Origin: Amphiscolops sp. MND2022 | Taxonomy: Eukaryota | Direction of reading: 5' to 3' | Length of the DNA stretch: 64,000 bases | Assembly (NCBI GenBank): GCA_964187785.1 | Contig: OZ076409.1 | Location: 25,236,001-25,300,000, forward strand | Part shown: positions 2,749-37,293 of the stretch, piece by piece | Numbering within the stretch: the first letter of the stretch is position 1 | Layout of the letters: every line of letters begins with the position of its first letter | Translations under genes and position numbers: made by a program | The notes under the pieces: generated by a model | What the model saw: the letters and a program-made list of their open reading frames with translations, nothing else | Databases searched by the model: none | Told to the model about the DNA's origin: nothing

Positions 2749-2914
2749 CTAGAACAACAATAAAAGTAGAGCATGACAGACAAACACTTCATGGCAATGA
2801 AAAAATCATCTTTAATATCTTTAAAGTTTGCAGTAGATGCCAATCTTAGCAGCCAAAATGCTAATTTCGAAAACTCACAAAACCGCGGATAAGCAAAATC
2901 GCCACCTTTTACTA

Positions 2915-3789: not shown

Positions 3790-4267
3790 GTTTAGTATCA
3801 TTTCACCCCACGTTCATTTCATCCCACATTCATTTCACCCAAATTCATTCACCCCACATTTAAATTATTGCCACACAATTTCAATCTAATAGAAAAGCGT
3901 CTTGAATCTAATTACCAATTAGATAAGCAAACTATGCTGGCTATGTGAACCACAAAATCGGAACCGAAATGTTTGACTTGTCGGAATTGTAATACTTCTG
4001 AACAAGGCGCTGAAAAAATCTTTTTCTTTCTGTCAATCAAAATCTTCAACTATATATGCTGCGAATCTTCAGCAAAAAATTTCCTATTACGTTTTCCTAC
4101 GGCAAAAAATTTCCTGGAGGACAGAAACCTCAAAGCTAACTCAAAGAGAGTAGGCATCAAAGTTTAATTGTTAATAGGCTAATTAACGTGAGTCGCTTTT
4201 GTATAAATACAATATGGTGTGAAATGAATGTGGGGTGAAATGAACGTGGAGTGAAATGATACTGAAC
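3790..4267. mobile_element. MITE with ~60 bp TIRs built from CATTTCACCCCAC-like subrepeats
   Basis: gtttagtatcatttcaccccacgttcatttc... mirrors ...gaaatgaacgtggagtgaaatgatactgaac; no clear TSD. Confidence 0.65.
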
Positions 4268-4662
4268 AGACATCAGCTACTTAAGTAGACGAATCAGGTG
4301 CTTGGTTACCGAGAGACAAAATGGTAGTCGCACATGCATAAAACGACCGCCATGATTCATTTTTCAGCCTACACAGAAAAAAATTATTATTAAATATCTC
4401 GGTTAGATCATAATGGAAAGTATGGACAAAAAGTTGAAGAAACGACCCGAAGCCTTAAATATCTGGAATTAGACCTTTCTAAACTTGATGAATTTGACAC
4501 AGCGTCAAGGTAAGATCAATAAAACTTTCATACCATTTCACAGACCTGGAACTTTGCAATAATACCAATCTAAACATCTCTACTGCAAATAAATCAGTGA
4601 TAACAAAATCCGTTCACATATTTCATTGAGCTGAAAGAAATGCTCTACGTTTTGAGACTTAC

Positions 4663-5063
4663 CCTCCAAACCAAGGATCCCGGTTAAAGACTGAGTAGCA
4701 CGAAGCACTGTAGTACTGCATAGGAGCCCAGTCTTCGTCAGACGAATTTCTGCCCAGAATAACCATACTATGCGGTCTCGGCGATTGGAAAGTCAATGAT
4801 ATCTTTCCTATCTCTGTCATGACACCCAGATCAATGGTAACATTGACCTCCATGTCAACTGTTGATGTATACCTGTTTGTGACGGCATTTTTGCCATCTG
4901 CAGACCCACTGACCCAAAAGGTCAGGTCATCTTTGTCAACAGCCGAGGTCACAGGGTGAAGTGGGACATCAGAGCTGACGGTACAGTCTTCAGACGAAGT
5001 TGAAACTTTTCCTGTTTCAGTGGTTGTATATCGTAGGAATTGAGTATCACAGGTAGAAGAAGC
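4663..5063 (-). CDS. Laminin gamma-like chain, exon 3 (LN domain)
   Basis: ccttag acceptor; ASSTC...VNVTIDLG...FQSPRP.SM.I...W.PMQYYSASC motifs; GTAAGT donor, phase 2. Confidence 0.92.
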
Positions 5064-10556: not shown

Positions 10557-11297
10557 TCAAAAACTAATACTACAATGTTTATCAAACAATGATACAAGTC
10601 TGCTTCTGCCCTCATTGGTCATAGTGTTACCAGACACATCAACTTTTTCAACATTTTTACAAAATTCGTCATTAGCGGATAACATATGAGTCACGGAATC
10701 ATTCAACGAGCATCTAGCTAAATTGACAACTTTCAACTTATTACAAAAAGAAAACAAATTTCGCACAAAACTAAGAGTAGGGCCCGACATGAAATTATCA
10801 CTGAGGCTCAAAAACTGCAAGCTAGAATACAGAAAGGGGTTTGAAGTTGATACACGGAGACATTCATTCACTATTCGTTTAAGACAATGCACGTCCATGC
10901 GATTCTTAGTTAGCTTCACTTCTTTGAGAAGCGGGCATGTAGCCAAAATGTTTCCAAGAGCGTTGAAATGATCATCGGTCATGTGGATTCTTGTGAACGC
11001 CAGCTGCTTAATGTTACGATATAACGATGCTTCGATTATGGACAACATCATTTCGGGGTTGTGATACTGAAAAGCGCCCAAAATTTCGTACTTGCTCTGC
11101 TCACAGTCTTGTACAATTTGCAGCGCATAGTCACAGATTTCAACTGAGTCGTTTCTCCTGTGACACAAATCTTTGAACTCGTCCATAATTCCTTGTTTTA
11201 GTTGCCAACCAATCACAATACAGAATAGTTCCTTCTTGCCCAAAATCTTCTCATTCAGAACTGAGTCTTTGGAGAGTGAAGCGAGATCGAGACTTTT
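10557..11297 (-). CDS. TONSL: Tonsoku-like protein, full-length terminal exon (end of UBL domain plus LRRs)
   Basis: ttgttcgtgttgcag acceptor in phase 0 matches the donor at 15765; LxxLxLxxN repeats (EVKLTKN, FLSLSDN, VVNLARC, VDVSGN); TGA stop; AATAAA on the minus strand near 10452-10457. Confidence 0.85.
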   Translation of the reverse strand, partial: KSLDLASLSKDSVLNEKILGKKELFCIVIGWQLKQGIMDEFKDLCHRRNDSVEICDYALQIVQDCEQSKYEILGAFQYHNPEMMLSIIEASLYRNIKQLAFTRIHMTDDHFNALGNILATCPLLKEVKLTKNRMDVHCLKRIVNECLRVSTSNPFLYSSLQFLSLSDNFMSGPTLSFVRNLFSFCNKLKVVNLARCSLNDSVTHMLSANDEFCKNVEKVDVSGNTMTNEGRSRLVSLFDKHCSISF

Positions 11298-15364: not shown

Positions 15365-15680
15365 GACTAGGGTACATCATCTGAGAAACTCAACGGGGGC
15401 AAAGGGTACTCCCTTAGAGTATTTTTGACTCTGAGTCTTTTTTTTTCGAAAACAAAAATTTCACCAAAGGGTTCCTCCTTCAATTTTTTGATATTTTCCG
15501 ACAGAATGGATGTTGAAAAATCCCAAAGGGTCCCTCCTTTCAGTTTTTCTCGGCATTGTGAGACTTTCAATTTTTTTCATAAAAGGGCCCCCAATTCACC
15601 AATACTTTGACATTTTGAACACCTTCTGCTATTGTTGAGCCTTAGATATGGCGCCAACTTGGGCCGTTCTCGGCTTGTCT
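15365..15680 (+). repeat. Partial HINE-family copy
   Basis: AAAGGGTCCCTCCTTT units and 3' end GCGCCAACTTGGGCCGTTCTCGGCTTGT. Confidence 0.6.
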
Positions 15681-15765
15681 TTTTTATCCAGGAAGACAGA
15701 TTAAATTCTCTAATCCCAAAGTAAACAAATCTGACAATATTAAAGTTCGAATATCGATATCTTAC

Positions 15766-18700
15766 CCCTCGAAACTTGACATCAAGAAGTGGGACCAAGT
15801 CAAATTTCTGTTTGAAATTGGAGCGTTCCAAAATTTGAAGAACTGTTTCATTCCCATCTTTGACATTTACGTTTGCAGTGAAAATGGTTTCCATTGTTCG
15901 ATTGGTGATGTAGCGAATATTCACATCAATAGCTTTATAAGGCAGGATAGGAGCAATTCCTTGAAATAATGGTCGATTTGAAATACATTTAACAGATTCT
16001 GAAGAATTGGATATGAAAGTAGAGCACAAGGGGTGATTGTCCAGTTCTAAACTAAGAATATCATCTGCATCTTTTTGGTTCAAGTCGGCAACTTTAGAAG
16101 ATTGTTGGATAGATAAAACGTCAGAAACATAAGTCGGAATGTCAATGCAAGGCTTAGCGACCTCTAGCTTTGTACTTGTAGCCGCTGATTTGTTTCCAAT
16201 TTCAGGAGATAAGGTCAAAGACTCATTTTCCGACAAATCATTATTTGATTGACTGCTTTCGTCTTTCTCGGGAGACGAGAACTTTTGCAATTCGATTATA
16301 TTAGGTTTATCAACAACGAGAGTACGAGAATGGTCAATTACAGAGCTTCTATCACATATCTCCTCTGATTTTTTCGGCGATACTGGCCGTTGTCTTTTCT
16401 CAGGTGTGACCTCTTGAGATCTTCGTTTGCAAGGATTTGTCGGTATATTTTCCTTTTCTGAATCAGACGAGCTGCTGTCGTCAATAACAACTCTTTTCGA
16501 CAATCTTTTATCTTTTGTAATTTTTTCTTTAATCTTTGTAGGCTCATTGAGACAGCCAGACTCGGATTTCTTAGATTTCAAGCTGACTGAGGATTCCGTT
16601 GTACTACAAATTCCGGAATCAGCAATACTTCCAGATTTTCGGCTGGAAAAACTGCGAACTTCTTGCAGCCACGAAGCTTCATTGGTATCTTTCAAAGTGT
16701 CGTTCGTTTTGGTTTCATTGCCACTAACTGTGACGTCTTTTTCACGACGACGCTCTTTTATCCGATCTGATCGTTTGATATCATCGGCCGTTCTACTTCT
16801 ATATAAGGCATTTCTTCGACTTTGGCATCTTAGAGCGTCTTCGTACATATCCATTGCAGTTCCTGGTTCGTTAGTAACAGTGACGCTATCAGTCTGTTCT
16901 GTACGAAGCAATTCAGAAGGTGGATCATACACAGCGTCATCATCTTCATCACTACTTCCGCCAGAAACAACTTCCGGGCATTGAGCTTCCCTGTTAGACA
17001 ACAAATGAGCATCCAAAACTTTCGTATTTGCTTTGGCTTCCGCAACACATTTAGGTCTTGGAATTTTGCTCAACATGGATTTGATCTCCTCAATAATTTT
17101 CCATTCCTCTGCAGTTGTATTATCTTCACCGTATTGCTTGTCAAGGAGCTCATAAAAAGTATCGGCTGCACATATGCCAATTTTACCTGGAAAATATGGA
17201 TAAGCTCCATTTTCTAACAGAACCTTAGCACATTCAAACTGGTGGCTTTGCATGGCGTCCATCAAAGGTGTCAAACCTGTTTGGGCCATGACACTGTCTA
17301 CCTTGGCGCCGTTTTCAACTAGAAGTTTACAAATCTCCACATGTCCGTGATTTGCTGCTTCATGTAGAGGAGTCCAGCAGTTGTTGTCCCTCACGTTAAC
17401 GCTGTATCCTTGATTAATGAGACTGCGCACAACAGAATACTTGCCTTCGATTACAGCAACCTGCAGTTTTGTTTCGCCTTTTGCGTTTCTTCTCTGCTTG
17501 TTCAACGGAACTTTGCGTTTCTTCTCAGTTTCCGAATCTGAGCTAGAACTTCCGATCTCTTCTAGGAGAGCATCATCATTGTCATCCGCATAATCCGAAT
17601 CTGCCGATAAGTAACCATGTTCTTGCTCTCGTAATCGAGAAGCAAGAGCATTGCATTTGGCCAAACTCGTCTCACTTTCTGCATACTTATGAGCCTTGTC
17701 CATGTAAAGCTCAGCGTTGCTTTTGTCAGAGAGATTGTGATAGCATTTGGATATGTGTCGGGCAATTCGGCTCATTTTTTCATCTTTTTCTTCTATTTCC
17801 ACGCCATTTCTTCTTAAGAGTTTAAGCAATTCCAAATAAATTTCAACAGCATGAGAGAAAAGATTCGAGTCACACAAATTGAGACAAATGGACAATTTCA
17901 AGTCATAAACTTTCTGTCCGAATGTATTACCCTGCTTGTCCAAGAGCCTGAGAACAGCTTCGTAACATTCATTCGACAATTTGTAAGACTGGACCTGGCA
18001 ATAAGTATCACCCAGTTGCTCAATTGTGTCGATATTTCCAGAAAGTTCTAAATCATCATCCAACTTGCTTCTCAGTAATTTACACAACTTCAGTCTCCGC
18101 CCAAGTTTGAGAGCATTTTCTGATAACTCAAATTTTGTAGCATTTTTCATCTTTTTGGCAAGTTTTATATGCGTGTAAGCATCATCGGTATTACTATTCA
18201 TACAGTGATATCTGGCAATATGGTAGTAGCAATTGAACTTTTCTTCCAAGCTGTCTTTGTTCTTTTCAATGATATTCAAATATTTTTTGGCATACTCCAA
18301 ACACAGATCATATTCTTTCCTCTTCTCATATAATGCTTGGGCATCACAGTACAGGAGTAACAAAATGTCTTGAAGATCGCGACTTTGCCGAGCTAATTCG
18401 ATTCCTAAGTTCAAATAGTGAAATGCTGTTTCAAGCTGATCAGTGTTACAAAAGAATTGGGCCATATTTTGAAATAGACTGGCTTTCTTTCGCGGTACTT
18501 CTAAATCACTGGAACAGTCTTTGGAAGCCTTTTTTATATCGTTTAATGTTTTCTCGCTTCCTAAAAACATTTTCTCAGCGTTTGTCAAGTAATTCTTTTT
18601 CTCAGAAGAAGTCAAATTCTCCCCGTCGGCGAGATACATGAAAGCTCGTGCCTGATTCAAGTATGCTTGTTGTAAGTGAGGTAACAATTTGAAGTCTTTA

Positions 18701-19005
18701 GACAATGAAAGATACTTTTCTGCCTTCACAGATGCATCAGTAACATAATCAAGCTCTATCAAGCAGTCTATTGACCTGCGCAAACCATCCAAGTAAGTTT
18801 CACGTTGACTTTGCGTATCAAGCTCCCGGTCAGTGCAAAGCGTTACTATTTCCTCGAATTTCTTGAGAGCATCGTCATAATTTTCTTCCCTGAACAAAAA
18901 TTCTCCCATTTCGAACAATATATCCAACACTTTTTGGAAATAACAATGTGCTCGAGCTTTACTAAGGTCTTGCTGCATAGCCTTGAAAAGTTTTCGATCT
19001 CCCAT
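15766..19005 (-). CDS. TONSL: Tonsoku-like protein, main exon (1080 codons: TPRs, acidic linker, 3 ankyrin repeats, Ser-rich linker, start of UBL)
   Basis: N-terminal TPR helices; RRNAKGETKL...RDNNCWTPLHEAANHGH...TPLMDA ankyrin block retaining the acidic/aromatic residues typical of the TONSL/BARD1 H4K20me0 reader; GTAAGA donor at 15765; with the LRR exon the architecture is diagnostic (1326 aa if spliced to 11297). Confidence 0.88.
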
Positions 19006-19149
19006 TTCATCTGAAAAAGAGGTTATATTGCGACCGGGGTGATTATATAGAGGACCACCGGATTAACGATAGAATCAACAAAGATCTTAGGGTTACCCCT
19101 TCAAACTCCAGTTTCGAAATTGATATGATTTTATTTTTAGTTTTCATGT

Positions 19150-19497
19150 GTGTGGGCGGAAATAGGTCGAAGGAACGGGATCGAAAATCAGTTAGTCCTC
19201 AGGTCGACATACCAAAATTTTTGAATGGGATCGAAACAACTCGGATCGAAAATTTTATAACGTAGTCAGATATGTTCACATACCCCTAGTGCCCTGAATG
19301 CAGGAGCGAAGCGAAGAGGAGCGACGTGCCATATGGCCATGCCTCAATGTTGCTACTTGGCGAAGGGAGCGAAGCGACCGAGCCATACATCAAATACGAT
19401 AAAATTCGACCGCACTCCATTCGATCCCTGCAATACGATCAAAAATTTCGACCTCTGTCCTTTCGACCAGAAAAATTCGACCTATTTACAGCCACTC
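19150..19497 (+). mobile_element. Mutator-like MITE (~350 bp), copy 1
   Basis: TIRs G(T/G)GTGG..GAAATAGGTCGAA / TTCGACCTATTT..CCAC(T/C)C; 9-bp TSD TTTTCATGT at 19141-19149 and 19498-19506. Confidence 0.85.
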
Positions 19498-19950
19498 TTT
19501 TCATGTCTTGCAGTCTTCGCACACCAGCATCTACAACTACTTAAAAAACAGAAGTTAGCCGGGAGTACGAGCAAAGGATGGTGGACAGTAACAGACTCTG
19601 AAGTAATCTTTTCCCGTCAACAAAAGCATGCGCCGGAGATCTCTCGGGGCCAAAAGACTAAAGGATCGCCGAAATTTAAACAACGACAAAGCGAAATATT
19701 TTTCGTTCGAAGATTTAGATTTTGGTGATCCGCAAATAGTTTGGCATATTCTTTTTCTGACTGAAAACATTTCAAAACCCACATTGTGAATGAGGAAAAA
19801 AATCAAAAAGTTGCGATTTTCGGTGCCTATTCATACAGCAGAAAATGAAAATTTGGTCCCATACAGCCGAATTCAAATTACTAGCTTTTAGTGCTGTTAC
19901 AGCCAATATGTTGGAACTTGATTTATTTAAAAAGGTTTGAATATTTGTTG

Positions 19951-20083
19951 TATGGCTCGGTCGCTTCGCTCCCTTCGCCAAGTAGCAACATTGAGGCATG
20001 GCCATATGGCACGTCGCTCCGCTTCGCTTCGCTCCTGCATTTAGGGCACTAGGGGTATGTGAACATAGCTAACTACGTTATAA
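19951..20083 (-). repeat. Solo ~133 bp GAGCGAAGCG-containing module, also nested inside the Mutator-like MITE
   Basis: Reverse complement of 19256-19388 without the MITE arms. Confidence 0.8.
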
Positions 20084-21191
20084 TAATAATTCCGACAAAA
20101 TCTGACACGCGTTTTCAGCTTAGTGAATTCAATTCGATTTCAAATTTCAGCCAATCAGATTGCAACATAAAGAAATATTCTGCTGTTTGAGACCAATTTT
20201 TCATTTTCTGCTGTTTGGTACTTCGGCTGTTTGGGAATTCCCCCGATTTTCCAATGAAACTTGCGCAATATCAATAGCAACAGGTCATATCGCGAGTAGT
20301 TTGGTTATAAAGCGGTGGGTCCCCACGCCAGGGGGGGGGTGTCCAAAAAAATTTCGACCCAAGGCAAGTTCCGCAAGAATAAATGAGTCACACACTTACT
20401 CCCAAAAATTTCTGAAATCCGGAAAAAAATACACCCCCCCCCTGATCATCACATGTAAAAATTCGAAAAACCGAAAAATTTTCGAAAAATACCTATAAAT
20501 AGTTTGAAACATCCGAAAAATTCAAGAAACGTGTTTCAAGCATCACATATATTTGAAAAAAATCAATGGAAAAGTTCCATTGCACATTTTGTCAGGTCAT
20601 GAAAAATTGGAAACCCATGGGAAAATAATTCCATGGTCAATACTTTTAGTATTTTGGATATTTCTCCACAGAGTTGGGAAAAGCTTAGATTAACTACTGA
20701 AAAAAAGTAAAACAAAATGGTACATCAGGAAAGACTATGTCAAAAGACCGCAAAAATTCCAGTGTCATTACATTGAAAACTAATAACTATTGAATCACTG
20801 GACGAAGTGATGCTGTGTTGCATTAGGCGGATTTTTATATGAAGGAAAACAGTCCTATACAGGAAAAAAAAGATGGCGCTCAAACAATTATCTTTACAAA
20901 GCTGACTTCACTAACATGGAGAAATGTTTTTAATAGTGGAAAACTCCTCAATTTTGGATATGCATTTCAATCTACGGATGAGCAAACATCAGACATACGG
21001 GAACCTTCTGAATTTCGTCTACAGCATTGAGTGTTTTCTATAGACCGCAAAAAAGTCTAAATATACCACCAAATGTGTTCAGTCAATTTCTACATGAAAC
21101 AATAATCGGCTATTCTAGGGACGTTCGCTATACCAGTGCAACGATTTACAAGTTATCATTATTTGAGTACGAAGCAACCATTACAAGGATT

Positions 21192-21441
21192 GGGTGAACG
21201 GAAATGGGTCGAAAGAAATGGGTCGAATCGGCCTCCTGTGCCATGGGTCGAATCTTCACCGTTTCGGAATTGGGTCGAATGGACTTGGGTCGACCTTGAA
21301 AAATGCCAAGTTCAAGGGAGACAACATATTGATTTCGACCCAAGTCCATTCAACCCCAGTCAATTCGACCTAAGTTATTCGACCAAAAGGGTCGACCTAA
21401 TTCTTTTCGACCTATTTCATTCGACCCATTTCATGCAATCC
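21192..21441. mobile_element. Second Mutator-like MITE family, inserted in the left Polinton arm
   Basis: GGGTGAA..GAAATGGGTCGAA / TTCGACCCATTTC..CAATCC TIRs; 9-bp TSD ACAAGGATT at 21183-21191 and 21442-21450. Confidence 0.8.
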
Positions 21442-22794
21442 ACAAGGATTTACGCGTTGCATTTATTTCAGTAGATAATTCTTTTTGTTGAGTGTACATC
21501 GGATATTTTTTTCATTGTAGCTTATCTTTCATACAAAATCAGGTTAAAATTTTGCGTCTTCAGGAGGAAGATTTTTACTCTTTCAAATCTATATTCAACT
21601 CCGTTTCTCTATCGATTATTTGACGAATGGAGCTCCATGTAGTGTTTTTAAGGTACTTTCAAGACAATTTCATTTCGGGACGTTGTTCCTGTTAATGTTA
21701 CAAGAGTGCCTATGAAACGATGCATCACTATCAGATTCAGTTCGACTACACAACCAAGTTTACTACTTTGCTCGAAAAGTGGAGCACGCTTAAGACAAAT
21801 AATCATAAAATTCATGTGGTGACCTGTTAGATCATTCACTTCAAGGGCAAAATATTATCATTGAAAATTATTTGAATCACAGATGTGTTTATTTTCAACA
21901 AGGTACGCACAAAATACACTGCACCAGACATAGTGAAGAACTAGTTCCAATTGAAAATTTTCGTATCGACAACACGAGTTTTCCAGACAGCACTAAATTC
22001 AATACATTTATTTACCCGGATGGAAATAAGTTTGATAAATCGAACAGCGATGGCTGAAAGTGGATACTAATTGAGGTTTATCAATTTAAACCCATGAAAT
22101 TCAGTTGTTTTGACACGAATATTGAGACGTTGAAATCAAACATGAATAAACTTGTTTAGAAACAATTCCTACCATTTATCTCAAATTGGAATCACTTAAA
22201 AATGGATTTCAGCAAAAATCACGTGATTGTTTTATTACATACGACATGCCAAATACGATATAATCCAGGTCTCAAGCTTCAAAGCCCAAGAAGAAAATGG
22301 ATATAATCATCGAGAATTAAATATACGAAAGCGGTAATAAATTGTAGACAAGATAACTACCAAACAAATACACTACACCATAAAAACAAATACACTACAC
22401 CATAAAACATAGTTAGGAAGTTGATTAGAATTAAACTTGGAATATGTTAACGAAACAAGGTTTCATAATACTCCACTGACAAGCAAAACTTTCATTCAGA
22501 TCTTATTGTAATATACTCTTTTGTAAACGTGGAGGTACTTTTACTAGAGCTAAGTCCTAAAAAGCACACGAAATACAATTGATAGCATTGACAGGACAGT
22601 AAATTTGAGTCCTTAAGTTTGAACGAAATAATCTTTGGAAACAACACCTCACGAACAGAAAACGAAGTAATACATTCCACAATCACAGAATACAAAGTTA
22701 ATAGTTTTTGTTGTTGAATTCAAGTCTACTGATTGTTTTAACATCACGCAATTTCAATGCAATGCTGTACTTGCAGAAGGAGCACCCTAGGTTC

Positions 22795-24403
22795 TCATAT
22801 ATCAAAGGATCTGTGTGGATTCCGTCTGAATGGAGTTTACGTTTCGGATAAAAGTATGATAAACCTCTCTTGGATTGTACGTAAGTATAAACAGCATGAT
22901 TTCGCACCCTGAACCCTCGATTGATTGATCTAAAATCTGAAACGTCATTCAAAACTTTTCTGTACTTCTGGAGAGGATCGTCTGATGACTCGCTCAAAAA
23001 GTGCTTGTTTAAACCCTTACTGCTGAACTTCGTTTTCTTCGTTTGTGAATCATAGCAACAATATGTTTTGCTACACAAGCAAATCATTTCTGTTGCATGG
23101 AATTGTTCCTTGAATAATCGAGGCTCTCGTTTGTCAAGCTGAGAGTGTGTGGAGCAACACCTTCGAGGAAAGAAGTTCCTCAAACTGTCTGCATCAAAGT
23201 AATTACGGAAGTCTTCTATTCTGATGGCTGACCACTCTCCGAGTTTATCTTTTCTGATGCAATCAGTAATGTCGTTCTCTGCTAAGGCTAAATAAAGAGA
23301 GTCAGTATCCATTTCCAATTCCTCGAACTTGCTTTCGTCACAGTACTGCTTGAAGAAATTATAATAAAGCTCCAACATTCTGAGCTTAGCATTTATTGTT
23401 TCTAAGGTTGCCCCTTGAATTCATTAACATCAACTTCACAGTGTTCCAGATATTGCTGGAAAAAATTCGCTGTTTGTTGCTCCAAATTCTGTCTGCCTGT
23501 GAGGTGAAATGCAACAGCTCTTAACAAGCACAAGTTGTTGTTGTAAGGTTTGTTCGAGGTTTTGGTAGATAGACAGAACATCTTCTTGGTTTTGAGGATA
23601 CGTGAGGGAATTTCCAGATTTTGACCACCTAATGGGATTTCTTTCAGAATTGCAGCAAAAACAGTCATATTTGTTGCAAAAGCAAATTTCCATTTTGTTT
23701 TAGGTCGCTCTCGTGTCGCTCTTTCAACGAAATCTTCCAGAGAAAGTTTTGCTATGACATTGTCAAGATATTTTTCATTACTCAAAAGTTGTGATGTATT
23801 GAAATTGAGTGAGTTTTCGTGAGCATAATAATAGCGGTAATAATCGCTTTCAATATTACGGAGGACAAAACCTAGGCTAATATTTATTTTGGCACTATTG
23901 TCAAGGTTGGCGAACACTAGTCGAAGTTTTTCAGCCATCACTGTTGGACTCAATTCCGTCAAAGCGAAGTTGAAAACATGCTGTTTTCCTCGTATTGATT
24001 CCGAATCAACAACAAAATGTTCAACATTGCGAAGCTCTTCCCGAAGTTGTTGATTCGCGTGATCCCCCATGATTGTGTCGAGGTCAACCTTTCCTGAAAG
24101 TGTAACATTCGACTGTGACCGACTACCATGGAGAGTTTGCTTAGGTTTGCGGAGAGCGTAGAAACTGTGGAATGTTAGCATACACTCAGTGCAAGTGAAT
24201 TTTCTTGTCAAGTATTCTTTGCGATGCTTTTCTGCTGTGTGGTTATCCAGTTCTTCCTTGGTCTTCGCTGTGAATTTTGGACATTTGGGACAGAATAGAT
24301 TTCCTCTCATGCACGACTTGTTGTGACGAGATGTATGCTTTTTGACAATTCTTTTTCCACATTTGCCACGTTCATTGGGTTTGTTTCAATCAAGAGCTGG
24401 CAT
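22795..24403 (-). pseudogene. Left-arm Polinton pPolB remnant (C2H2 N-terminus joined to C-terminal palm; ~2.6 kb internal deletion)
   Basis: MDTDSLY motif C, KxYC and KFSSKG motifs; junction near 23390 joins the equivalents of right-arm 28956 and 31544. Confidence 0.85.
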
Positions 24404-25439
24404 TTTATGGTCTAAAAGTAGTAATCTTCAACGTGAAAAAGAACTATTCAATTTGGAAAGTGTTCTTTCCGTGTAGTAAAATGGAAGTTGTCCAAAACGA
24501 TTCTAACTGATTATGCCGCGTTGAAATATGACTTCTGATTTAACGTCTAATTAAAAGAGGTTTCATCGCAGTAGCACAAAACATTTCCATATGTTTTACG
24601 ATCACGGAGGTGGCAGAACCCCAAAATTTTGTGTGTACTCGAAAGTGTTTTTTGGAAAAACAGTTTAATTTGTGATCGGTTTCGAACACAACAGTCTTTT
24701 CCTACAATACTAATCTTTGTTGACGTGAATTTGTCGAAACTTGTCTCACTATCTGGGATATAGACCATGAAAGCAAAAACAAAAAAAATTACAAAAATTT
24801 TTATACATTGATATCGAGAAATGGTTCGTAAAAACTGAACGCTAAATCGAACACTTGGAAAAATTGTATTTGTTTATTGTATTTTAGCGGTTATCTCACA
24901 ACGAGTTTTGTGGGTGTATTACACTCACTGTGGCATTAGAGGCTCTTTAGTTGAGTCGTGAGAGTAATCCTGAATCAATTGTTTTGCCGAAAGATCAAAC
25001 TTCAAAGCGAAAGCGGGGCAACGTAATTGCCATCCTTAATCACACCACAACAGAGTTCGCGATTGATTATGCGTGTGTTTAGTCAATGCCGCTCTTCAAG
25101 ATTTCATTTTGAGTCACCCACAAAAATTCATGATTGCTGTATCGAAACGGAAGAACTGGAGCGTGACGCTGAATAAGCATTCAAGTGGCATTCAATTATC
25201 TTATCCAGCAGTAGTCTTTGAAGTTTTCTTTAAATGTGTGTTGTCACAGATTTCGAATTTGAATCACCTGGACATATTTGGTAATTGTTATATACACTGA
25301 TTGACAAGAGCGTCATGCTGTATAGACCTGAAAGGGACGCCGACAGCTTGTTTTTGCTGATCCTGTTCACTTTCACGAAGCCCTTTTATTCTTTCAAGCG
25401 TTCAATTTTTGCGTCTTGCCAATCGAATCATGCGCATTT

Positions 25440-26040
25440 CGAGTAGTCTATGACTAATATACAAATAACAATTCCATGTTTGAAACTGAATGCCTTGTTT
25501 TAAAAAGTAAAACAATAGGTGGATTTTCCGAAAAAGAAAAATCCATATAGATTTCAACCAGATACGGGATTAATGACAGTTCTGAAAGAATTTTGTATTG
25601 AAATTCTCCCCTAGACATATGTAGAATGGAACTAAATGTCTCAGTATCCAGTAGACATGACAATGCAACACGAAGTAATAACGTTTGGATTATGTGAATC
25701 TGAAATGTTTGCTAAAGTTATGTAAAAAGTTTTCTCTGAAACTCATTCTTGGTGCCCAAACTATTTGACGAACATCTCGAGAGTAAGTGAGATATTTTTA
25801 AAAGCTACATGTTCTGTGGTCAACAAAATTATTGCATTGCCAAAAATTAAATTGAGCGTTCTTGTAGTCAGTTTTTTAGGCCATTTTCAGTTTTCTAACG
25901 ATTATATTCTAACCCGCGTTGATATATTTGAAATTGAGTCAGCATGATTTTTCTTGGAACATGTCTATAATGAAGTTGCTCGCATGTTTGATTCTTTCAT
26001 CATCAGTAGTGTTGTAGTAACGTTATCAGTCAATCACTGA
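25440..26040 (+). pseudogene. Decayed unknown Polinton ORF pointing toward the palindrome centre (mirror copy ~26309-26900, minus strand)
   Basis: One frame reads PDTGLMTVLKEFCIEILP*...NYLTNISRVSEIFLKATCSVVNK...FFLEHVYNEVAR with scattered stops; conserved in both arms. Confidence 0.4.
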
Positions 26041-27941
26041 TTTTAAAGACTTTTTTTGGTTCGGATATGTTCTGTCTTGTTTATTCAGTTCGTGGCTAAT
26101 GTCTCAATGTCCACTAGTAACTCTGACATTCGACCACTTTCGTAATTTTAAATCTCCAATTTTTCTGCTGATCAAACCTTAAAAGGTTTAACTCGAAAAA
26201 CCTAACTGTTGAATGAGCCTAATAACACGTTATTCATAGTAATTTGACACTCTACTTGTTGAAACTATAATTGAATGTTTTATTCCTGCGACTTTTTTCC
26301 TGTGTTTGCTAAATAGCAAGGTACTGGAAGACTGGATAATAATCAGTAATGATTACATCAAGCTTTCGAGCTACTTCATTATAGACATGTTCCAAGAAAA
26401 ATCTTGTAGACTCAATTTCGAATATATCAACGCAGGTTAGAATATAATAGTTAGAAAACAGAAATTGGCCTAAAAAACTTACTACAAGAACGCTCAATTC
26501 AATGTTAGGCAATGCAATAATTTTGTTGACCACAGAACATGTAGCTTTTAAAAATATCTCACTTACTCTCGAGATGTTCGTCAAGTAGTTTGGGCACCAA
26601 GAATGAGTTTCAGAGAAAACTTTTTACATAACTTTAGCAAACATTTCAGATATACATATTCCAAACGTTATTACTTCGTGTTGCATTGTCATGTCTACTG
26701 GATACTGAGACAATTAGTTCCATTCTACATATGTCCAGCGGAGAAATTCAATACAATATTCTTTCAGAACTGTCATTAATCCCGTATCTGGTTGAAATCA
26801 ACATAGATTTTTCTTTTTCGGAGATCCACCTATTGTTTTACTTTTTAAAACAAGGCATTCAGTTTCAAACATGGAATTGTTATTTTTATATTAGTCAAAG
26901 ACTACTCGAAATGCGCATGATTCGATTGGCAAAACGCAAAAATTGAACGCTTGAAAGATTAAAAGGGCTTCGTGAAAGTGAACAGGATCAGCAAAAACAA
27001 GCTGTCGGCGTCCCTTTCATGTCTATACAGCATGAGGCACTTGTCAATCAGTGTATATAACAATTACCAAATATGTCCAGGTGATTCAAATTCGAAATCT
27101 GTGACAACACACATTTAAAGAAAACTTCAAAGACTACTGCTGGATAAGATAATTGAATGCCACTTGAATGCCTACTCAGCGTCACGCTCCAGTTCTTCCG
27201 TTTCGATACAGCAATCATGAAGTATTGTGGGTGACTCAAAATGAAATCTTTAAGGGCTGCATTGACTGAACACACGCATAATCAATCGCGAACTCTGTTG
27301 TGGTGTGATTAAGGATGGCAATTACGTTGCCCCGCTTTCGCCTGAAGTTTGATCTTCTGGCAAAACATTTGATTCAGGATTACTCTCACGACTCAACTAA
27401 GGAGCCTCTAATGCCAGAGTGAGTGTAATACACCCACAAAACTCGTTGTGAGATAACCGCTAAAATACAAAAAACAAATACAGTTTTCCCAAGTGTTCGA
27501 TTTAGCGTTTAGATTTACGAATCATTTCTCGATATCATTGTTTAAAAATTTCTGTATTTTTTTTGTTTTTGCTTTCGTGGTCTATATCCCAGATAGTGAG
27601 ACAAGTTTTTACAAATTCACCTCAACAAAGATTTGTATTGTAGGAAAATACTTTTGTGTTCGAAACCGATCACAAATTAAATTGTTTTTCCTTGAAACAT
27701 TTTCGTGTACACACAAACTTTTGGAGTTCTGCCACCTCCGTGATCGTAAAACATATGGAAATGTTTTGTGCTACTGCGATGAAACCTCTTTTAATTAGAC
27801 GTTAAATCAGAAGTCATATTTCAACGCGGCATAATCAGTTAGAATCGTTTTGGACAACTTCCATTTTACTACACGGAAAGAACACTTTCCAAATTGAATA
27901 GTTCTTTTTCACGTTGAAGATTACTACTTTTAGACCATAAA

Positions 27942-30900
27942 ATGCCAGCTCTTGATTGAAACAAACCCAATGAACGTGGCAAATGTGGAAAAAGAATTGT
28001 CAAAAAGCATACATCTTGTCACAACAAGTCGTGCATGAGAGGAAATCTATTCTGTCCCAAATGTCCAAAATTCACAGCGAAGACCAAGGAAGAACTGGAT
28101 AACCACACAGCAAAAAGCATCGCAAAGAATACTTGACAAGAAAATTCACTTGCACTGAGTGTATGCTAACATTCCACAGTTTCTACGCTCTCCGCAAACC
28201 TAAGCAAACTCTCCATGGTAGTCGGTCACAGTCGAATGTTACACTTTCAGGAAAGGTTGACCTCGACACAATCATGGGGGATCACGCGAATCAACAACTT
28301 CGGGAAGAGCTTCGCAATGTTGAACATTTTGTTGTTGATTCGGAATCAATACGAGGAAAACAGCATGCTTTCAACTTCGCTTTGACGGAATTGAGTCCAA
28401 CAGTGATGGCTGAAAAACTTCGACTAGTGTTCGCCAACCTTGACAATAGTGCCAAAATAAATATTAGCCTAGGTTTTGTCCTCCGTAATATTGAAAGCGA
28501 TTATTACCGCTATTATTATGCTCACGAAAACTCACTCAATTTCAATACATCACAACTTTTGAGTAATGAAAAATATCTTGACAATGTCATAGCAAAACTT
28601 TCTCTGGAAGATTTCGTTGAAAGAGCGACACGAGAGCGACCTAAAACAAAATGGAAATTTGCTTTTGCAACAAATATGACTGTTTTTGCTGCAATTCTGA
28701 AAGAAATCCCATTAGGTGGTCAAAATCTGGAAATTCCCTCACGTATCCTCAAAAACAAGAAGATATTCAGTCTATCTACCAATTCTTCGAACAATCCTTA
28801 CAACGACAACTTGTGCTTATTAGGAGCTGTTGCATTTCACCTCACAGGCAGACAGAATTTGGAGCAACAAACAGCGAATCTTTTGCGGCAATATCTGGAA
28901 CACTGTGAAGTTGATGTTAATGAATTCAAGGGGGCAACCTTAGAAGCAATAAATGCCCTAGAAGATCTAACAGAGCTGAATATCAGCATCTACGATATCG
29001 AAGTTGAAAAAGATCAGCTTGTTGGGGTTTTATCACGACGCAGTATCAATAAACATTCCAGAAGCGTAACACTTTTGAGTTATCAGAATCACGTCCGTTA
29101 CACGAAGGACCTCAATGCTGTTTTCAATTGCTTCCGCTGTGGAAGTTCGTAACAAATTTTTCCGCAAGCATTCCAATTAGCGACGTCATTTGCCAATTTG
29201 TAGTGAAAAAGTCAAGGAAAAATTCCCAGAATCTGCGTACCAACTGAAAAAAACAGTGTTCGAAAAACTTTCGAAGTTTGGAATTACAGTTCCTGAAGAC
29301 TACAGACTTTTCAAAAATCTCGCAATTTTTGATTTCGAATCAATTTGCGTGACTGAAAACAATTCCGAGTCAAGCAATTCAACTACAAGGGTAGGTAAGC
29401 ATCAACCCATTTCCGTATCAATATCTTCTAACCTTCTCAGAAATTACATCTTTTTATGTGATCCACAACGTAACCCAATTCGTATAGGCTTTGGAAAATC
29501 TTGCAAATGAAAGCAGAGACCAATTGCAGTCGCAATTTGCAGACATAACCTCAGCTGTTTATGAGAAGCTAGAGGAACTCTCTGACCAGATAACCTTGAA
29601 GGAATCGGGTTCAACGAAAATATCTGCACAAGAATTCTCTCGCAAGTTTTAAAACCAACGAAAACGGGATTTACTCAACCTACAGGAAACCCTAGATAAC
29701 TACTTATCAACATTTCCAGTTTTTGACTTCAACAGTGGTAAATATGATCTGAACCTTATAAAATCATATTTAATTCCAATTCTGATCAAGGAAAAAGTGT
29801 TGCAACCCCGTGTCATTAAAAAAACCAATCAATTCATCTCACTCAAATTTGGTAATGTGCAGATGTTTGATATCATGAATTTCATTGGCGGGGCGACAAC
29901 TCTAGATTCATTTTTAAAAGCTTAGGAATCTTCTGAGACTAAGGAATTTTTCCCTTATGAATGGTTCGACTGTCCATCAAAACTTGATAACGAACAACTT
30001 CCATCATATACTGAGTTTTTCAGCAAGCTCCGAAATCAAAATCCTCTGGAAGCCGATTACAAAAAGTTCGAAAATTTTCTTCGTAGTGGTTACACCGAAA
30101 AAGATGCCTTGCGAGAAACGAGAATATGCTCTGTTCCTCCTACAGGAAAGGAAAACTACTCTCATATGCAGGCTGTTTGGGAATCCCAAATCATGAGAAC
30201 TTTCAAAGATTTTTAAAAGTGGTACAATAACAAGGATGTTGTTCCAACACTGGAAGCTGTCCAAAAAATGATGAAATTTTATCATGACCGTGGAATCGAC
30301 GTGCTGAAACTTGGCTGCACTCTTCCGAATTTAGCCAACATATGTCTACATTCTTCGACTGATGCAAAATTTTACCCATTCATTGAACATGATCGGGATT
30401 TTTTGAACAAAATCAGAGAAGATATGGTCGGAGGACCATCCATTGTTTTCACACGGAAAGCAATTGCCGGAAAACCAAAATTCGTCATACTGAAAACTTG
30501 TGTAAGACTGTTGTTGGAATCGATGCTAGTCAATTATATACTCCATGTTCACCATGTGTCAGGAAATGCCGACTGGGCTATACACCAGATGGGAAATTGA
30601 TGCTGAAAAGAAAAAATTATTCCCTTTCAGAATCGGCGACGACGCTTTGAGAACATGGTGATGGACCATTTGCTGTAAAGTGTTTGATGGACACTGTAAC
30701 ACTGTGTTTGAAGCCATGGGATGCTTCTATCATGGCTGTAATTGTCAAATGACAAAGAAAAAACCTAATGCTCATACTGTGAAATTTTGGCAAGACAGGA
30801 GAAAGTTTGACGCAGAACGAAAAAATTTCATCATCGGAAAAGCTTTTGAAATAGTCGAAGTTTGGGAATGTCTTTGATAGAAGCAGGTGAGAGATGACAA

Positions 30901-32140
30901 GACCTTGAAGGAGCAATTGAAGATAAATTTTCCATTTCGGAAACCGTTGTCTGAGCAGCAGCTACTGCAACAGATTGACAATGGTTCACTAATTGGATAT
31001 GTTCAATGTGCTTTATCAGTCCCCAAAAATTTTCAAAGCTACTTTCAACATTTTCCTCCAGTTTTCAAGAATTGTTTTGTGAGCAAAAGCGATATTGGTG
31101 AATATATGAACTCCTATGCTGACCAACAAGGCCTGCTCCGACAACCCAGCAGAATATTGATTTCTAGTTTTCACTTGGAAAATGGGAGTGTTATAACTCC
31201 GCTTTTTAATTTCTACAGGAGGCTGGGTCTTGAGTGTACAAGGGTTCACCGAATTGTTGAGTACACTCCTGAAAAATGTTTCAAGGGATTCGTGAAGTCA
31301 GTTGTTGATGCTCGACGATTAGGTGATCAACAGTAACAGTTTTTATGGATACCAAATCATGGATCGTAGCAAGCATACGGAGACAAAATACCTGGATGAG
31401 AAAAAGACTAATCGAGCTATAAATAGTCCCTTGTTCAAACAGCTTCAGTACATCAACGATTCAGTGTATGAAGTGGAGCATGTCAAAGCCGAAATAGAAC
31501 ATCGGGAACCAATTATTGTAGGCTTCTTCATTCTTCAATACGCTAAGCTCAGAATGTTGGAGTTTTATTATAATTTCTTCAAGCAGTACTGTGGCGAAAG
31601 CAAGTTCGAGGAATTGGAAATGGATACTGACTCTCTTTATTTAGCCTTAGCAGAGAACCACATTACTGATTGCATCAGATAAGATAATCTCGGAGAGTGG
31701 TCAGCCATCAGAAAAGAAGACTGCCGTCATTACTTTGAGGCAGACAGTTTGAGGAACTTCTTTCCTCGAACGTGTTGCTCCACACACTCTCAGCTTGACA
31801 AACGAGAGCCTGGATTATTCAAATAAGAATTCCGTGCAACAGAAATGATTTGCTTGTGTAGAAAAAACATATTGTTGCTATGATTCACAAACGAAGAAAA
31901 CGAAATTCAGCAGTAAGGGTTTAAACAAGCACTTTTTGAACGAGTCATCAGACGGTCCTCTCCAGAAGTAAAGAAAAATTTTGAATGACGTTTCAGATAT
32001 TGGATTGATCAATCGAGGGTTCAGGGTGCGAAATCATGCTGTTTATACTTACGAACAATCCAAGAGAGGTTTTATCATACTTTTATCCGAAGCGTAAACT
32101 GCATTCAGACGGAATCCACACAGATCCTTTGGATATAGAA
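27942..32140 (+). pseudogene. Right-arm Polinton protein-primed family B DNA polymerase, near full length with frameshifts and stops
   Basis: N-terminal C2H2 fingers; ExoI FDFES; ExoII FNSGKYDL; ExoIII YNNKDV; GGPSIVF; motif A GIDASQLY; NSFYG motif B; MDTDS motif C. Confidence 0.9.
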
Positions 32141-32365
32141 GAACCTAGGATGCTCCTTCTGCAAGTACAGCATTGCATTGAAATTGCGTGATGTTAAAAC
32201 AATCAGTTGACTTGAATTCAACAACAAAAACTCTTAACTTTGTATTCTGTGATTGTGAAATGTATTAGTTCGTTTTCTGTTCGTGAGGTGTTGTTTCTAA
32301 AGATTATTTCGTTTAAACTTAAAGACTCAAATTTACTGTCATGTCAATGCTATCAATTGTATTTC

Positions 32366-34970
32366 GTGTGCTTTTTAGGACATAGCGCTAGTAAAAGTAC
32401 CTCCACGTTTACAAAAGTGTATATTACAATACGATCTGAATGGAAGTATTGCTTGTCAGTGGAGTATTATGAAACCTTGTTTCGTTAACATATTGCAAGT
32501 TTAATCCTAAATAACTTCCTAACTATGTCTTATGGTGTAGTGTATTTGTTTTTATGGTGTAGTGTTTTTGTTTGGTGGTTATCTTGTCTACAATTTATCA
32601 CCGCTTTCGTATATTAAATTCTCGATGATTATATTCATTTTCTTCTTGGGCTTTGGAGCTTGAGACCTGGATTATATCGTAATTGGCATGTCGTATGTAA
32701 TAAAACATTCTCGTGATTTTTGCTGAAATTCATTTTTAAGTCATTCCAATTTGAGATAAATGGTAGGAATTGTTTCTAAACAAGTTTATTCATGTTTGAT
32801 TTTAACGTCTCAATATTCGTGTCAAAACAACTGAATTTCATGGGTTTAAATTGATAAACCTCAATTAGTATCCACTTTCAGCCATCGGTGTTCGATTTAT
32901 TAAACTTATTTCCATCCGGGTAAATAAATGTATTGAATTTAGTGCTGTCTGGAAAACTCGTGTTGTCGATACGAAAATTTTCAATTGGAACTAGTTCTTC
33001 ACTATGTCTGGTGCAGTAGAAAATACTCAATGCTGTAGACGAAAATCAGAAGGTTCCCGAATGTCTGATGTTTGCTCATCCGTAGATTGAAATGAATATC
33101 TAAAATCGAGGAGTTTTCTACTATTAAAAACATTTCTCCATGTTAGTGAAGTCAGCTTTGTAACGATAATTGTTTGAACGCCATCTTTTTTTCCTGTATA
33201 GGACTGTTTCCCTTCATATATTAATCCGCCTAATGAAACACAGCATCACTTCGTCCATTGACTCAATAGTTGTTATTAGTTTTCAATGTAATGACACTCT
33301 GGAATTTTTGCGGTCTTTTGACATAGTCTTTCCTGATATACCACTTTGTTTTACTTTTTTTCAGTAGTTATTCTAAGCTTTTCCCAACTCTGTGGAGAAA
33401 TATCCAAAATACTAAAAGTATTGACCATGATATTATTTTCCCATGGGTTTCCAATTTTTCATGACCTGACAAAATGGGCAATGGAATTTTTCCATTCATT
33501 TTTTTCAAATATATGTGATGCTTGAAACACGTTTCTTGAATTTTTCGGATGTTTCAAACTATTTATAGGTATTTTTCGAAAATTTTTCGGTTTTTCGAAA
33601 TTTTACATGTGAAGATCAGGGGGGGTGTATTTTTTTTCCGGATTTCAGAAATTTTTGGGAGTAAGTGTGCTTTTTAGGACATAGCGCTAGTAAAAGTACC
33701 TCCACGTTTACAAAAGTGTATATTACAATACGATCTGAATGGAAGTATTGCTTGTCAGTGGAGTATTATGAAACCTTGTTTCGTTAACATATTGCAAGTT
33801 TAATCCTAAATAACTTCCTAACTATGTCTTATGGTGTAGTGTATTTGTTTTTATGGTGTAGTGTATTTGTTTGGTGGTTATCTTGTCTACAATTTATCAC
33901 CGCTTTCGTATATTCAATTCTCGATGATTATATTCATTTTCTTCTTGGGCTTTGGAGCTTGAGACCTGGATTATATCGTAATTGGCATGTCGTATGTAAT
34001 AAAACATTCTCGTGATTTTTGCTGAAATTCATTTTTAAGTCCTTCCAATTTGAGATAAATGGTAGGAATTGTTTCTAAACAAGTTTATTCATGTTTGATT
34101 TTAACGTCTCAATATTCGTGTCAAAACAACTGAATTTCATGGGTTTAAACTGATAAACCTCAATTAGTATCCACTTTCAGCCATCGGTGTTCGATTTATC
34201 AAACTTTTTTCCATCCGGGTAAATAAATGTATTGAATTTAGTGCTGTCTGGAAAACTCGTGTTGTCGATACGAAAATTTTCAATTGGAACTAGTTCTTCA
34301 CTATGTCTGGTGCAGTAGAAAACACTCAATGCTGTAGACGAAAATCAGAAGGTTCCCGTATGTCTGATGTTTGCTCATCCGTAGATTGAAATGAATATCT
34401 AAAATCGAGGAGTTTTCTACTAATAAAAACATTTCTCCATGTTAGTGAAGTCAGCTTTGTAACGATAATTGTTTGAACGCCATCTTTTTTTCCTGTATAG
34501 GACTGTTTCCCTTCATATATTAATCCGCCTAATGAAACACAGCATCACTTCGTCCATTGACTCAATAGTTGTTATTAGTTTTCAATGTAATGACACTCTG
34601 GAATTTTTGCGGTCTTTTGACATAGTCTTTCCTGATATACCATTTTGTTTTACTTTTTTTCAGTAGTTAATCTAAGCTTTTCCCAACTCTGTGGAGAAAT
34701 ATCCAAAATACTAAAAGTATTGACCATGATATTATTTTCCCATGGGTTTCCAATTTTTCATGACCTGACAAAATGGGCAATGGAATTTTTCCATTCATTT
34801 TTTTCAAATATATGTGATGCTTGAAACACGTTTCTTGAATTTTTCGGATGTTTCAAACTATTTATAGGTATTTTTCGAAAATTTTTCGGTTTTTCGAAAT
34901 TTTACTTGTGAAGATCAGGGGGGGGGGTGTGTTTTTTTCCGGATTTCAGAAATTTTTGGGAGTAAGTGTG
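32366..34970. repeat. Tandem duplication in the right Polinton arm, period ~1299 bp
   Basis: 32366-33669 repeated at 33665-34970 with GTGTG junction microhomology and a few substitutions. Confidence 0.92.
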
Positions 34971-35197
34971 TGACTCATTCATTCTTGCGGAACTTGCCTT
35001 GGGTCGAAAAATTTTTTTTGGACACACCCCCCCTGGCATGGGGACCCACCGCTATATAACCAAACTACTGAGGGGACCCAACTTCGACTGGATGTGGATC
35101 TATGCCCTATCTTAATACATGGGGGTCCCCTACCCCCAGTATGATCGTCTCAAATATAACTACTATCGCGATACCTAACTCCAGAAAGGCAATGATT

Positions 35198-37293
35198 AAC
35201 AACACGGGAACGTCCCAAGTGGGCGCCATACCTAAGGCTCAAAAATATTCAAGGAACAACTATTGGAAACATTTGGAAATTATTTTTTCCAAAAAAATCG
35301 CCCAATGCCGAAAACTCAAAAAGGCTATTTAGGCTCAATAAACGTTTTTACAAGCCGAAAACTTCAAAAAATGCAAGGGATTATCTTGTGACAGAATTCG
35401 AAAATTTTCGAAAAAAGTCGCATAGTGCCGAAAAAACCCAAAGGGGGACCCTTTGGTCTCGCCTCTACTTTTAGAAGCATAAAAAATTTGTGGTTTAGTG
35501 CAAGAATGGAACCCACGATCTTCTGCTTCTCAGAAAATTAGTGTAACAAATGAACAAAAGATTGTAAAAAAGTGGACCATTCAGAGTGAGATTGTCAGCT
35601 GAAAAAGAAAACAAGTCGGGATCGGCCCAAGTCGACGCCATATCTAGGGCTCAAAAATCCAAAAGTTTTATAGTACTGAAAACCTGACCCCTAAGCAAAT
35701 TATGTGACACTTTGGGGCAAAAATTGATATTATACGAGAAATGAAGAAAGTTATATCCGAACTTTGAACACGTTATAACCGAACTTTGGAAACATTACAT
35801 CGGAACATTGAAAACGTTACATCCGAACTCTGAAACGTTATATCCGAACTAGAATCCATGTTGACGTCTCGACAGTGCCGAAAAACCCGAAAGGAGACCC
35901 TTTGGACACAAAAAGTGGCTTATGGTTACAAAAAAACATCAAAAAGGGGACCCTTTGGTAACATTTGAAAATTTTGGAAAAATATCTCACAGAGCCAAAA
36001 ATACTGTAAGGGAGTACCCTTTAGTCCCGTTAAATTCCTTAGATGATGTAAAAAAACATTTTAATCTTTTGTGCAATCTATTAAATTTGCTTACTAAAAT
36101 TCATGAATCATGAAAATTGTAAAAAGTGAACCATTCAGAGTGAGATTGTCAGCTGAAAAAGAATACCCACTGTAACAGTCGGGCTTTTTTCCTCAAGAAA
36201 AAAAGCGCCGACTAAAAAACTACCCACTGTAACAGTCGGGCATTTTTCATTGGGGGAAAAGGCGCCAACTAAGAAGGACAAGGCGGGAACTTTTAAAGTC
36301 GGCGTTATATCTAAGGCTCGAAAAGCGCAAAGAACTGAAAACAAAACAATTTCTATGTCAAAAAAGATTCATTTCGAAAAATCTCACAATGTTGAAAATT
36401 GTAAAAGGGGGGACCCTTTGGGCTTTTTGAAAATCCAGTTTGTTGCAAAATATCAGAAAAATTGAAGGGGACCCTTGGAGACATTAAAAAGTTGTCGAAA
36501 GAAAAACGAAAAATGATTATTTTGAACAGTCTCATAGTGCCGAAAAATGTAGGAGGGGGTTGCAAAAAATCCCTGCAAAAAAATATTGCGGAATCCCTTC
36601 AGTTGCAAAATATCAAAAAAAATTGAAAGGGGGACTCTTTGGAGACAAAAAAACTTTCGAAAAAAAGTCGCACAGTGACGAAAGAAAATTGAAAGGGGGG
36701 ACTCTTTCAGTGGGTGGGCGGAAATAGGTCGAAGGAACGGGATCGAAAATCAGAGTTAGTCCTCAGGTCGACATACCAAATTTTTGAATGGGATCGAAAC
36801 AACTCAGATCGAAATTTTTATAACGTAGTCAGATATGTTCAATTACCGCTAGTGCCCTGAATGGAGGAGCGAAGCGACGTGCCATATGGCCATGCCTCAA
36901 TGTTGCTACTTGGCGAAGGGAGCGAAGCAACCGAGCCATAAAACAAATACGATAAAATTCGACCGCATTCCATTCGATCGCTGCAATTCGATCAAAAGGT
37001 TCGACCTTTGTCCTTTCGACCAGAAAAATTCGACCTATTTACAGCCACCCTCTTTCAGTCCCGTCCGGTTTTGTAGGTTACCTTGAAAAAGTAAAAAAGA
37101 AAGGGGACTAAGTTTGGACTAAGTTTGCCTTGGCCCCGGACTTGGCCTTAGGTGTATGTGGTTTCAGGAGTGTTTTTAAAAATTGGACCGATCAGTGTGA
37201 AGATTGTAGTCACAATTGTGAAGATTGAAGAAAAAAAGGTCACTGCTTTAGTCGGGCATTTTTCCTTAAAAGGATAAAGAGCCGACTAAAAAC
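35198..37293 (-). repeat. Nested cluster of HINE-family copies including a ~21 bp CCGAACTTTGAAAACGTTATA minisatellite (35750-35850)
   Basis: Several AACAAG..AGTCGGCG..TCTAAGGCTC ends and GCCGACTAAAAA ends. Confidence 0.65.
36712..37050 (+). mobile_element. Mutator-like MITE, copy 2
   Basis: GGGTGG...CCACCC TIRs; perfect 9-bp TSD TCTTTCAGT at 36703-36711 and 37051-37059. Confidence 0.9.

Follow-up and report, generated by a model that had tools for sequence, protein, structure and literature searches.

A dead palindromic Polinton/Maverick derivative with two outward-pointing, broken polymerase genes in a contig of Amphiscolops sp.

A stretch of 64,000 nucleotides from contig OZ076409.1 of Amphiscolops sp. 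MND2022 (positions 25,236,001 to 25,300,000 of the forward strand, hereafter the window) contains a dead palindromic derivative of a Polinton/Maverick element, with two outward-pointing and broken polymerase genes (pPolB, for protein-primed family B polymerase). The element spans positions 20295-35164 of the window, or 14,870 bp today. The origin that we favor, with moderate confidence, is the integration in trans, as one piece, of either a snap-back genome or a member of a family that such a genome founded.

Self-BLAST and global alignments delineated two inverted arms, at 20295-25992 and 26357-35069, flanking a unique spacer of 364 bp (25993-26356), and bore out the inverted arms described at these coordinates in an earlier note on this DNA, made from the sequence alone. 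The pairing between arms is one-to-one and falls into three blocks (20295-21040 with 34316-35069, 21918-23390 with 31542-33017, and 23389-25992 with 26357-28956), differing by 182 substitutions over 4,815 aligned sites and by 14 small indels. The further proposal that nearly the whole element is an inverted repeat holds for the arms but not for the extent, with 4,821 of the 5,698 left-arm bases paired and with partnerless sequence amounting to 877 bp in the left arm and 2.6 kb in the right arm, the latter corresponding to the middle of the polymerase gene, in addition to a 1,299-bp duplicate. The only tandemly repetitive parts of the arms are a 22-bp doublet and an inserted MITE (miniature inverted-repeat transposable element).

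The hexamer ATCGCG at 20289-20294 and again at 35165-35170 forms one 6-bp target-site duplication enclosing 20295-35164, and the chance of such a match, calculated from flank composition, is 1.4-3.2e-4. The 12-mers composed of end motif and scar are each unique within the window, and the 6-bp target site sits inside a 10-bp palindromic context. End motifs of the (AGT)2//(ACT)2 type are present at 20295-20300, where the left arm starts, at 35064-35069 and at 35159-35164, and no terminus-like sequence was detected at the centre of the element or in 5 kb of each flank (best local score 31/120). The proposal of a single scar around both arms is supported. The mirror of the left terminus is exact at 35064-35069 and stops precisely at the terminal base, as expected from the copying of a free linear molecule or from joining by an integrase. 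A perfect 14-bp G/C-rich inverted repeat (20329-20342/20431-20444), 35 bases inside the terminus, is kept at the mirror end, and the predicted folding of the termini was unremarkable (z-scores of -1.1 to 0.2).

The scar does not adjoin this inner right terminus, which ends at 35069. Between it and the scar hexamer lie a further 95 bp (35070-35164), of which the last six bases are ACTACT. Only the first 7 bases of this outer terminus are common to the inner one, and homology between the two was rejected, because 433 of 2,000 shuffles aligned equally well. The AGTAGT-type termini and the scar said to enclose the structure are both present, but the ends that touch the scar do not form one matching pair. 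The outer 95-bp terminus had no second copy in the window, and exact searches of viral contigs for both termini yielded 0 and 0 matches. Most simply, the 95-bp end would be a terminus captured from a different family, or one that was embedded and has disappeared on the left between the two 7-bp repeats.

Polintons are held, from homology, to replicate by protein priming. Among long proteins, the sole match to the element was P0001 (1,445 aa, from an ENA assembly), whose residues 1-1445 map onto the right arm at 27942-32137 (+) in nine pieces of 57-86% identity, with several frame changes and 15 stops within the aligned pieces. The left copy, at 22803-24403 (-), covers residues 1-331 and 1248-1443 of P0001 (62% and 75% identity, respectively) and lacks the middle 2.6 kb, with the junction near 23390. 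The mapping confirmed the outward-pointing pPolB previously noticed in each arm, both copies being broken. Exonuclease, polymerase and Vsr-like motifs were found on the right-arm copy. The Pfam family PF03175 matched 6 of 13 aligned relatives, P0001 itself not being among them. A structural model of P0003, a natural relative fragment (predicted local distance difference test, pLDDT, 72.9), matched the PolB of MELD-viruses, adintoviruses and bidnaviruses with E values of 2.6e-20 to 4e-16, and the best solved structure in the PDB was the phi29 polymerase (E 3e-3). Profile and modelled fold identify the polymerase of the element as one of the protein-primed family B type, whose domains are treated in PMC11161782.

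P0001 belongs to a cluster of nine members that are 97-100% alike, four of them full-length and one on a 17,976-bp contig, an intact relative family that is young and probably active. Fifteen related loci were detected in metagenomes, with best-segment identities of 23-58%. An inverted repeat was present in one of the 15 (L011, 68 bp), and in a distantly related locus (L010) the polymerase lies beside an A32 ATPase, an rve integrase and a double-jelly-roll capsid. L010:507-13948 represents an almost complete Polinton-like genome, in which a phospholipase A2 is fused to an integrase. L011:1-12801, a contig of 12.8 kb, has terminal inverted repeats (TIRs) of 68 bp and, among the open reading frames (ORFs) scanned, no integrase match. 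Viral contigs yielded no locus for the window fragment and none for P0001; when compared with our polymerase alignment (A1) they yielded 23 loci, all matching the Vsr-like insert only. Prokaryote genomes returned 2 short contigs and phage records none. Three further pPolB fragments (P0011, P0162 and P0163) were recorded, with a longest contig of 177,426 in each. P0011 and P0163 are 97% identical, apparently out-of-frame ends included, and this pair is probably a local duplicate and possibly another palindrome.

The differences between the pPolB copies of the two arms comprise 7 synonymous and 35 nonsynonymous changes, distributed as 16/12/14 over the codon positions, with no significant departure from neutrality (P=0.70), and an omega of 0.3 or less was rejected (P=5.5e-5). 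The left copy has 15 derived changes and the right copy 13, another 7 being ambiguous, which corresponds to symmetric decay. Such neutral and symmetric divergence indicates that the arms were near-identical when selection ended. A read chimera is excluded by the divergence of the arms together with their arm-specific rearrangements, in line with the non-chimeric structure assumed in the earlier note: the 182 differences in 4,815 sites accumulated neutrally and symmetrically, and each arm was rearranged in its own way.

The arm differences were also strongly clustered (dispersion P=5e-9). A tract at 23590-24619 in the left arm, aligned with 27726-28754 in the right arm, has 3 differences in 1,030 bp, as opposed to 193 in 3,785 bp elsewhere (0.3% vs 5.1%), and its likelihood ratio of 35.6 compares with a maximum of 10.6 among 200 permutations. 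We read this homogenised tract as the result of arm-to-arm gene conversion after insertion, which a polishing error could mimic. The tract holds the sole stop and the two losses of highly conserved sites that are common to both pPolB copies. The three stops outside it are each confined to one arm, and deviations at 92 conserved sites are arm-specific in 12 cases vs shared in 3. Decay before duplication was considered as the source of the shared pPolB lesions and dropped, because the stop and the conserved-site losses fall in the converted tract. The data fit a pPolB that was intact when the palindrome inserted; the non-polymerase parts may have decayed before duplication.

Later changes differ between the arms. 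The 877 bp found only in the left arm (21041-21917) were deleted from the right arm, and this deletion predates the event by which a 1,299-bp unit was duplicated in tandem in the right arm (32366-34970; copies 1.0% apart, 5-bp junction microhomology), as both tandem copies carry the deletion junction. Junction identity at the two large deletions, judged by eye from the alignment, is only 1-2 bp. Within the left-only part lies a 250-bp MITE-like insertion (21192-21441) with imperfect inverted ends, built of 14-15-bp repeats in inverted arrays and flanked by a 9-bp duplication (21183-21191/21442-21450), a scar length that suggests the label MULE-like.

Reverting these changes by arithmetic gives a length at insertion of 16.4 kb without the MITE and 16.9 kb with it. 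Intact vertebrate Mavericks measure 16,862 +/- 1,678 bp, from which the authors infer a size constraint (PMC8097293); the comparison spans different hosts. The spacer was also considered as an older and decayed palindrome and rejected as such, because 97 of 300 shuffles scored as well. No more than 10 bases from the symmetry centre there is a hairpin with a 7-bp stem, at 26174-26189 (P about 0.014 for its position, assessed post hoc).

No integrase was found in the element, within a limited sensitivity, either with a 2-sequence profile (best E 1.6) or as an rve match in 76 pieces and 18 X-read frames, and no packaging ATPase with a 4-sequence profile (best E 3.4) whose members recognise each other at E 2e-44 to 0.008. 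A comparison of 91 ORFs from the related loci with the element outside pPolB, which included no close capsid or protease query, gave one weak match (E 0.0056). At the curated cut-off, Pfam yielded 0 matches for the 76 stop-to-stop pieces and 18 X-read frames, a weak test because Pfam also missed three polymerase frames. The statement that no integrase, capsid, ATPase or protease is recognisable thus stands for integrase and ATPase, as far as small profiles can tell, and for capsid and protease it meets weak tests only. The small ORF remnants attributed to the arms found no support in similarity searches or in the codon model, in which the pPolB control scored 62.8, the host flank 7.2 and no region elsewhere above 11.2. 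No homologue was found for a 113-codon frame or for an X-read inner frame, one of the six inner frames having been searched whole; the Atlas gave no usable match for the non-polymerase frames and Rfam gave 0. The 113-codon frame (27457-27798, +), just upstream of pPolB, is largely open in both arms and is a candidate gene.

Foldback and MITE-type elements have arms of short tandem repeats and no polymerase, and the present element falls outside that class, its arms holding pPolB and not being built of such repeats. Non-autonomous Polintons in Repbase, such as zebrafish Polinton-2N1_DR, reportedly have Polinton ends and multi-kilobase inverted arms that are non-coding, unlike the arms described here, each of which retains the polymerase gene; these palindromic forms, if confirmed, would make the form described here an already catalogued one. 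The kalilo linear plasmid, a pPolB replicon, reportedly has a hairpin deletion derivative, to judge by the title of the report, and would then share with our element a near-complete palindrome of a pPolB replicon, the kalilo form being extrachromosomal. Vertebrate Mavericks are characterized by (AGT)2//(ACT)2 end motifs, a 6-bp target duplication and TIRs of 46-1,447 bp, and their particles were unobserved as of that publication (PMC8097293). The element resembles Polintons/Mavericks (polintoviruses, adintoviruses) in its end motifs, 6-bp duplication, pPolB and length near 17 kb. Unlike vertebrate Mavericks, it has arms of 5.7 and 8.7 kb, a unique centre of 364 bp, two pPolB copies and unequal outer ends, and integrase, ATPase, capsid and protease were not found in it, the tests for the last two being weak. 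It is not an autonomous Polinton: pPolB, the end motifs, the 6-bp duplication and a length within 13-25 kb are present, but matched short TIRs (0.05-1.5 kb) around unique genes are lacking, and an integrase and an ATPase were not found.

Closer in form are butterfly Polintons, in which core genes are likewise doubled inside inverted repeats (bioRxiv 10.1101/2025.02.07.637071). The genes doubled there are hexon and adenain, in elements called full-length, whereas the element described here has two polymerase copies and a unique part of only 364 bp. Snap-back or copy-back defective viral genomes, defined in passages of PMC13506859 that deal mostly with RNA viruses, share with the element one genome end at both sides and a palindrome over nearly the full length. 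They differ in being extrachromosomal, whereas the element carries a 95-bp extra end, is integrated with a scar and has decayed since. A search of full-text literature, with Repbase, the 2006 founding paper and supplements outside its scope, found no description of a fully palindromic Polinton, and the available parts of PMC10748475, PMC6431247, PMC8502044, PMC9863843, PMC5499653 and bioRxiv 10.1101/2022.07.12.499685 do not mention palindromic Polintons.

The strongest points for a fold-back origin are the single scar, the lack of inner termini and a mirror that stops exactly at the terminal base. In the sequence of events that we propose, protein-primed synthesis on a free linear genome would have started at the polymerase-proximal end and run for about 8 kb before a template switch near the genome midpoint, followed by a run back off the starting end; the resulting molecule, about 16.5 kb long, would have two origins and lack integrase and capsid. 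One end would then have gained 95 bp of a different Polinton-type terminus, by one-ended integration into the end of another family or, on the episome, by a template jump from end to end. It may instead be that the 95 bp stood at both ends and that the left copy was lost between the two 7-bp repeats. A helper integrase would have inserted the molecule, leaving the 6-bp duplication. Thereafter decay would have set the arms about 5% apart, with a loss of 0.9 kb from the right arm and of 2.6 kb of pPolB from the left arm, while the right arm duplicated 1.3 kb (1.0% apart) and a 1-kb tract was converted between the arms (0.3% apart). We infer the replication steps, the helper and packaging, and the dependence on a helper follows, in this scheme, from the missing integrase. 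Of the fossil defective palindromic Polinton integrated in trans that the earlier note envisaged, the Polinton derivative, the single scar and the non-chimeric structure were upheld, and the matched ends were not.

Several observations weigh against a snap-back origin. The scar is flanked by two different termini and not by a matched pair, and for that reason an older host element could own the scar. Fold-back homology in the spacer did not reach significance (97 of 300 shuffles are as good; past the boundary, 12 of 35 positions match, P=0.20). Shared lesions are enriched inside the converted tract (4:2, vs 3:12 outside), but on its own this contrast is not significant (Fisher P=0.12). No gene could be recognised in the 3-4 kb of non-polymerase sequence of each arm, where stretches without shared stops reach at most 372 bases in any frame, which indicates that these parts are non-coding, contain small genes or had already decayed; such gene-poor parts are not obviously predicted for a fresh snap-back of an intact virus. 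Long coding arms need not mean snap-back, as Polintons with gene-bearing 2-kb TIRs exist. Lastly, no parent, sibling copy or empty site was found in the DNA searched (viral contigs, metagenomes and the window).

A bolder, and doubtful, possibility is that the element belongs to a class of self-replicating satellites. Such a satellite would be a unit-length palindrome in which the polymerase alone is under selection and doubled, the other genes having decayed; its termini would be swapped with or captured from helpers, and it would be packaged and integrated by full Polintons.

Rather unlikely, in our assessment, is an autonomous Polinton with giant TIRs of about 8 kb, pPolB inside them, that lost nearly all of its unique centre and kept 364 bp. 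The single scar and the neutral divergence of the arms are explained equally well in that case, two other large deletions did hit this copy, and the butterfly Polintons carry TIRs of about 2 kb that double hexon and adenain (bioRxiv 10.1101/2025.02.07.637071). However, the TIRs would have to be five times the length of those measured in vertebrates (46-1,447 bp) and the parent roughly 24 kb or more, unit length is already reached without an additional centre, and the 95-bp second end would go unexplained.

Slightly less probable still is nesting, in which the scar and the outer 95 bp would derive from an older resident Polinton of another family (B), into which the palindrome, or two head-to-head copies of a family A, inserted before deletions removed the body of B and the inner parts. 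The different terminus at the outer right end agrees with this, the 7 first bases shared by both termini could have guided a deletion, near-identical family members would likewise decay neutrally, and at one C. elegans locus Polinton copies pile up and rearrange or invert (PMC11414722). Nesting requires, however, a deletion on the left ending exactly at both termini. The other two deletions show just 1-2 bp of junction identity, by eye. Neither B nor the hexamer found next to the inner right end has left a trace in the 1-kb flank on the left, the centre has no inner termini and the decay is symmetric (15 vs 13).

We regard as improbable a chromosomal break in an ordinary integrated Polinton, after which host fold-back repair would have copied the left part and rejoined the old right tip. 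Fold-back inverted duplications at double-strand breaks are known (PMC10622511), the window has several young duplications and a short hairpin lies near the centre; nevertheless, a mirror of the left terminus would be expected at the old right tip and is not there, and the copying would have had no reason to stop at the terminal base before reaching host flank. An assembly or read-chimera artefact is the least probable explanation, for although the window has two further tandem duplications, of 99.6% and 100% identity, and the near-identical 1-kb tract between the arms could come from polishing, it would not account for the 5.1% divergence outside that tract, nor for the arm-specific kilobase deletions, MITE and duplication, and would not create a matching scar.

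Elsewhere in the window, pieces coding for laminin N-terminal, EGF and domain-IV regions at 863-5063 (-) identify the host as an animal. An uninterrupted frame of 1,161 codons with ankyrin repeats and a weak TPR match (15577-19062, -) lies 1.2 kb to the left of the element, and a 258-codon frame with weak LRR matches (10557-11333, -) falls partly within a young 1.7-kb duplication. This tandem duplication (10879-12557/12585-14264) is 99.6% identical over 1.68 kb and a second one (44441-45901/45899-47359) is 100% identical over 1.46 kb; each may be a real slippage event or an assembly duplicate. The second, at 44441-47359, is enclosed by an older 3.1-kb duplication (41496-44572/46047-49164, 88.5% identity). 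Retrotransposon remains (a reverse transcriptase, and an aspartyl protease with an integrase zinc domain) and a PHD-finger frame occupy 55099-56211 (+), 59246-61828 (-) and 62517-63305 (+). A 350-bp dispersed repeat of 89-92% identity recurs at 19142-19503, 36705-37057 and 57102-57449, with a partial copy at 19942-20087, near the left scar.

A fold-back genome in a chromosome would be a fossil of replication, preserving the place of the turn, the run-off at the last base and the integration in trans, and the second terminus may record the identity of the helper. The converted tract is a warning that arm-to-arm identity underestimates the age of palindromic elements. A turn that restores unit length leads to a testable prediction, namely that capsid size selection should be apparent across many palindromic copies, and, if the satellite class proved true, the length of the element would be indirect evidence for size-selective capsids of animal Polintons. 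The snap-back origin favored here would make the element rare sequence evidence of how Polintons, which have never been cultured, copy themselves.

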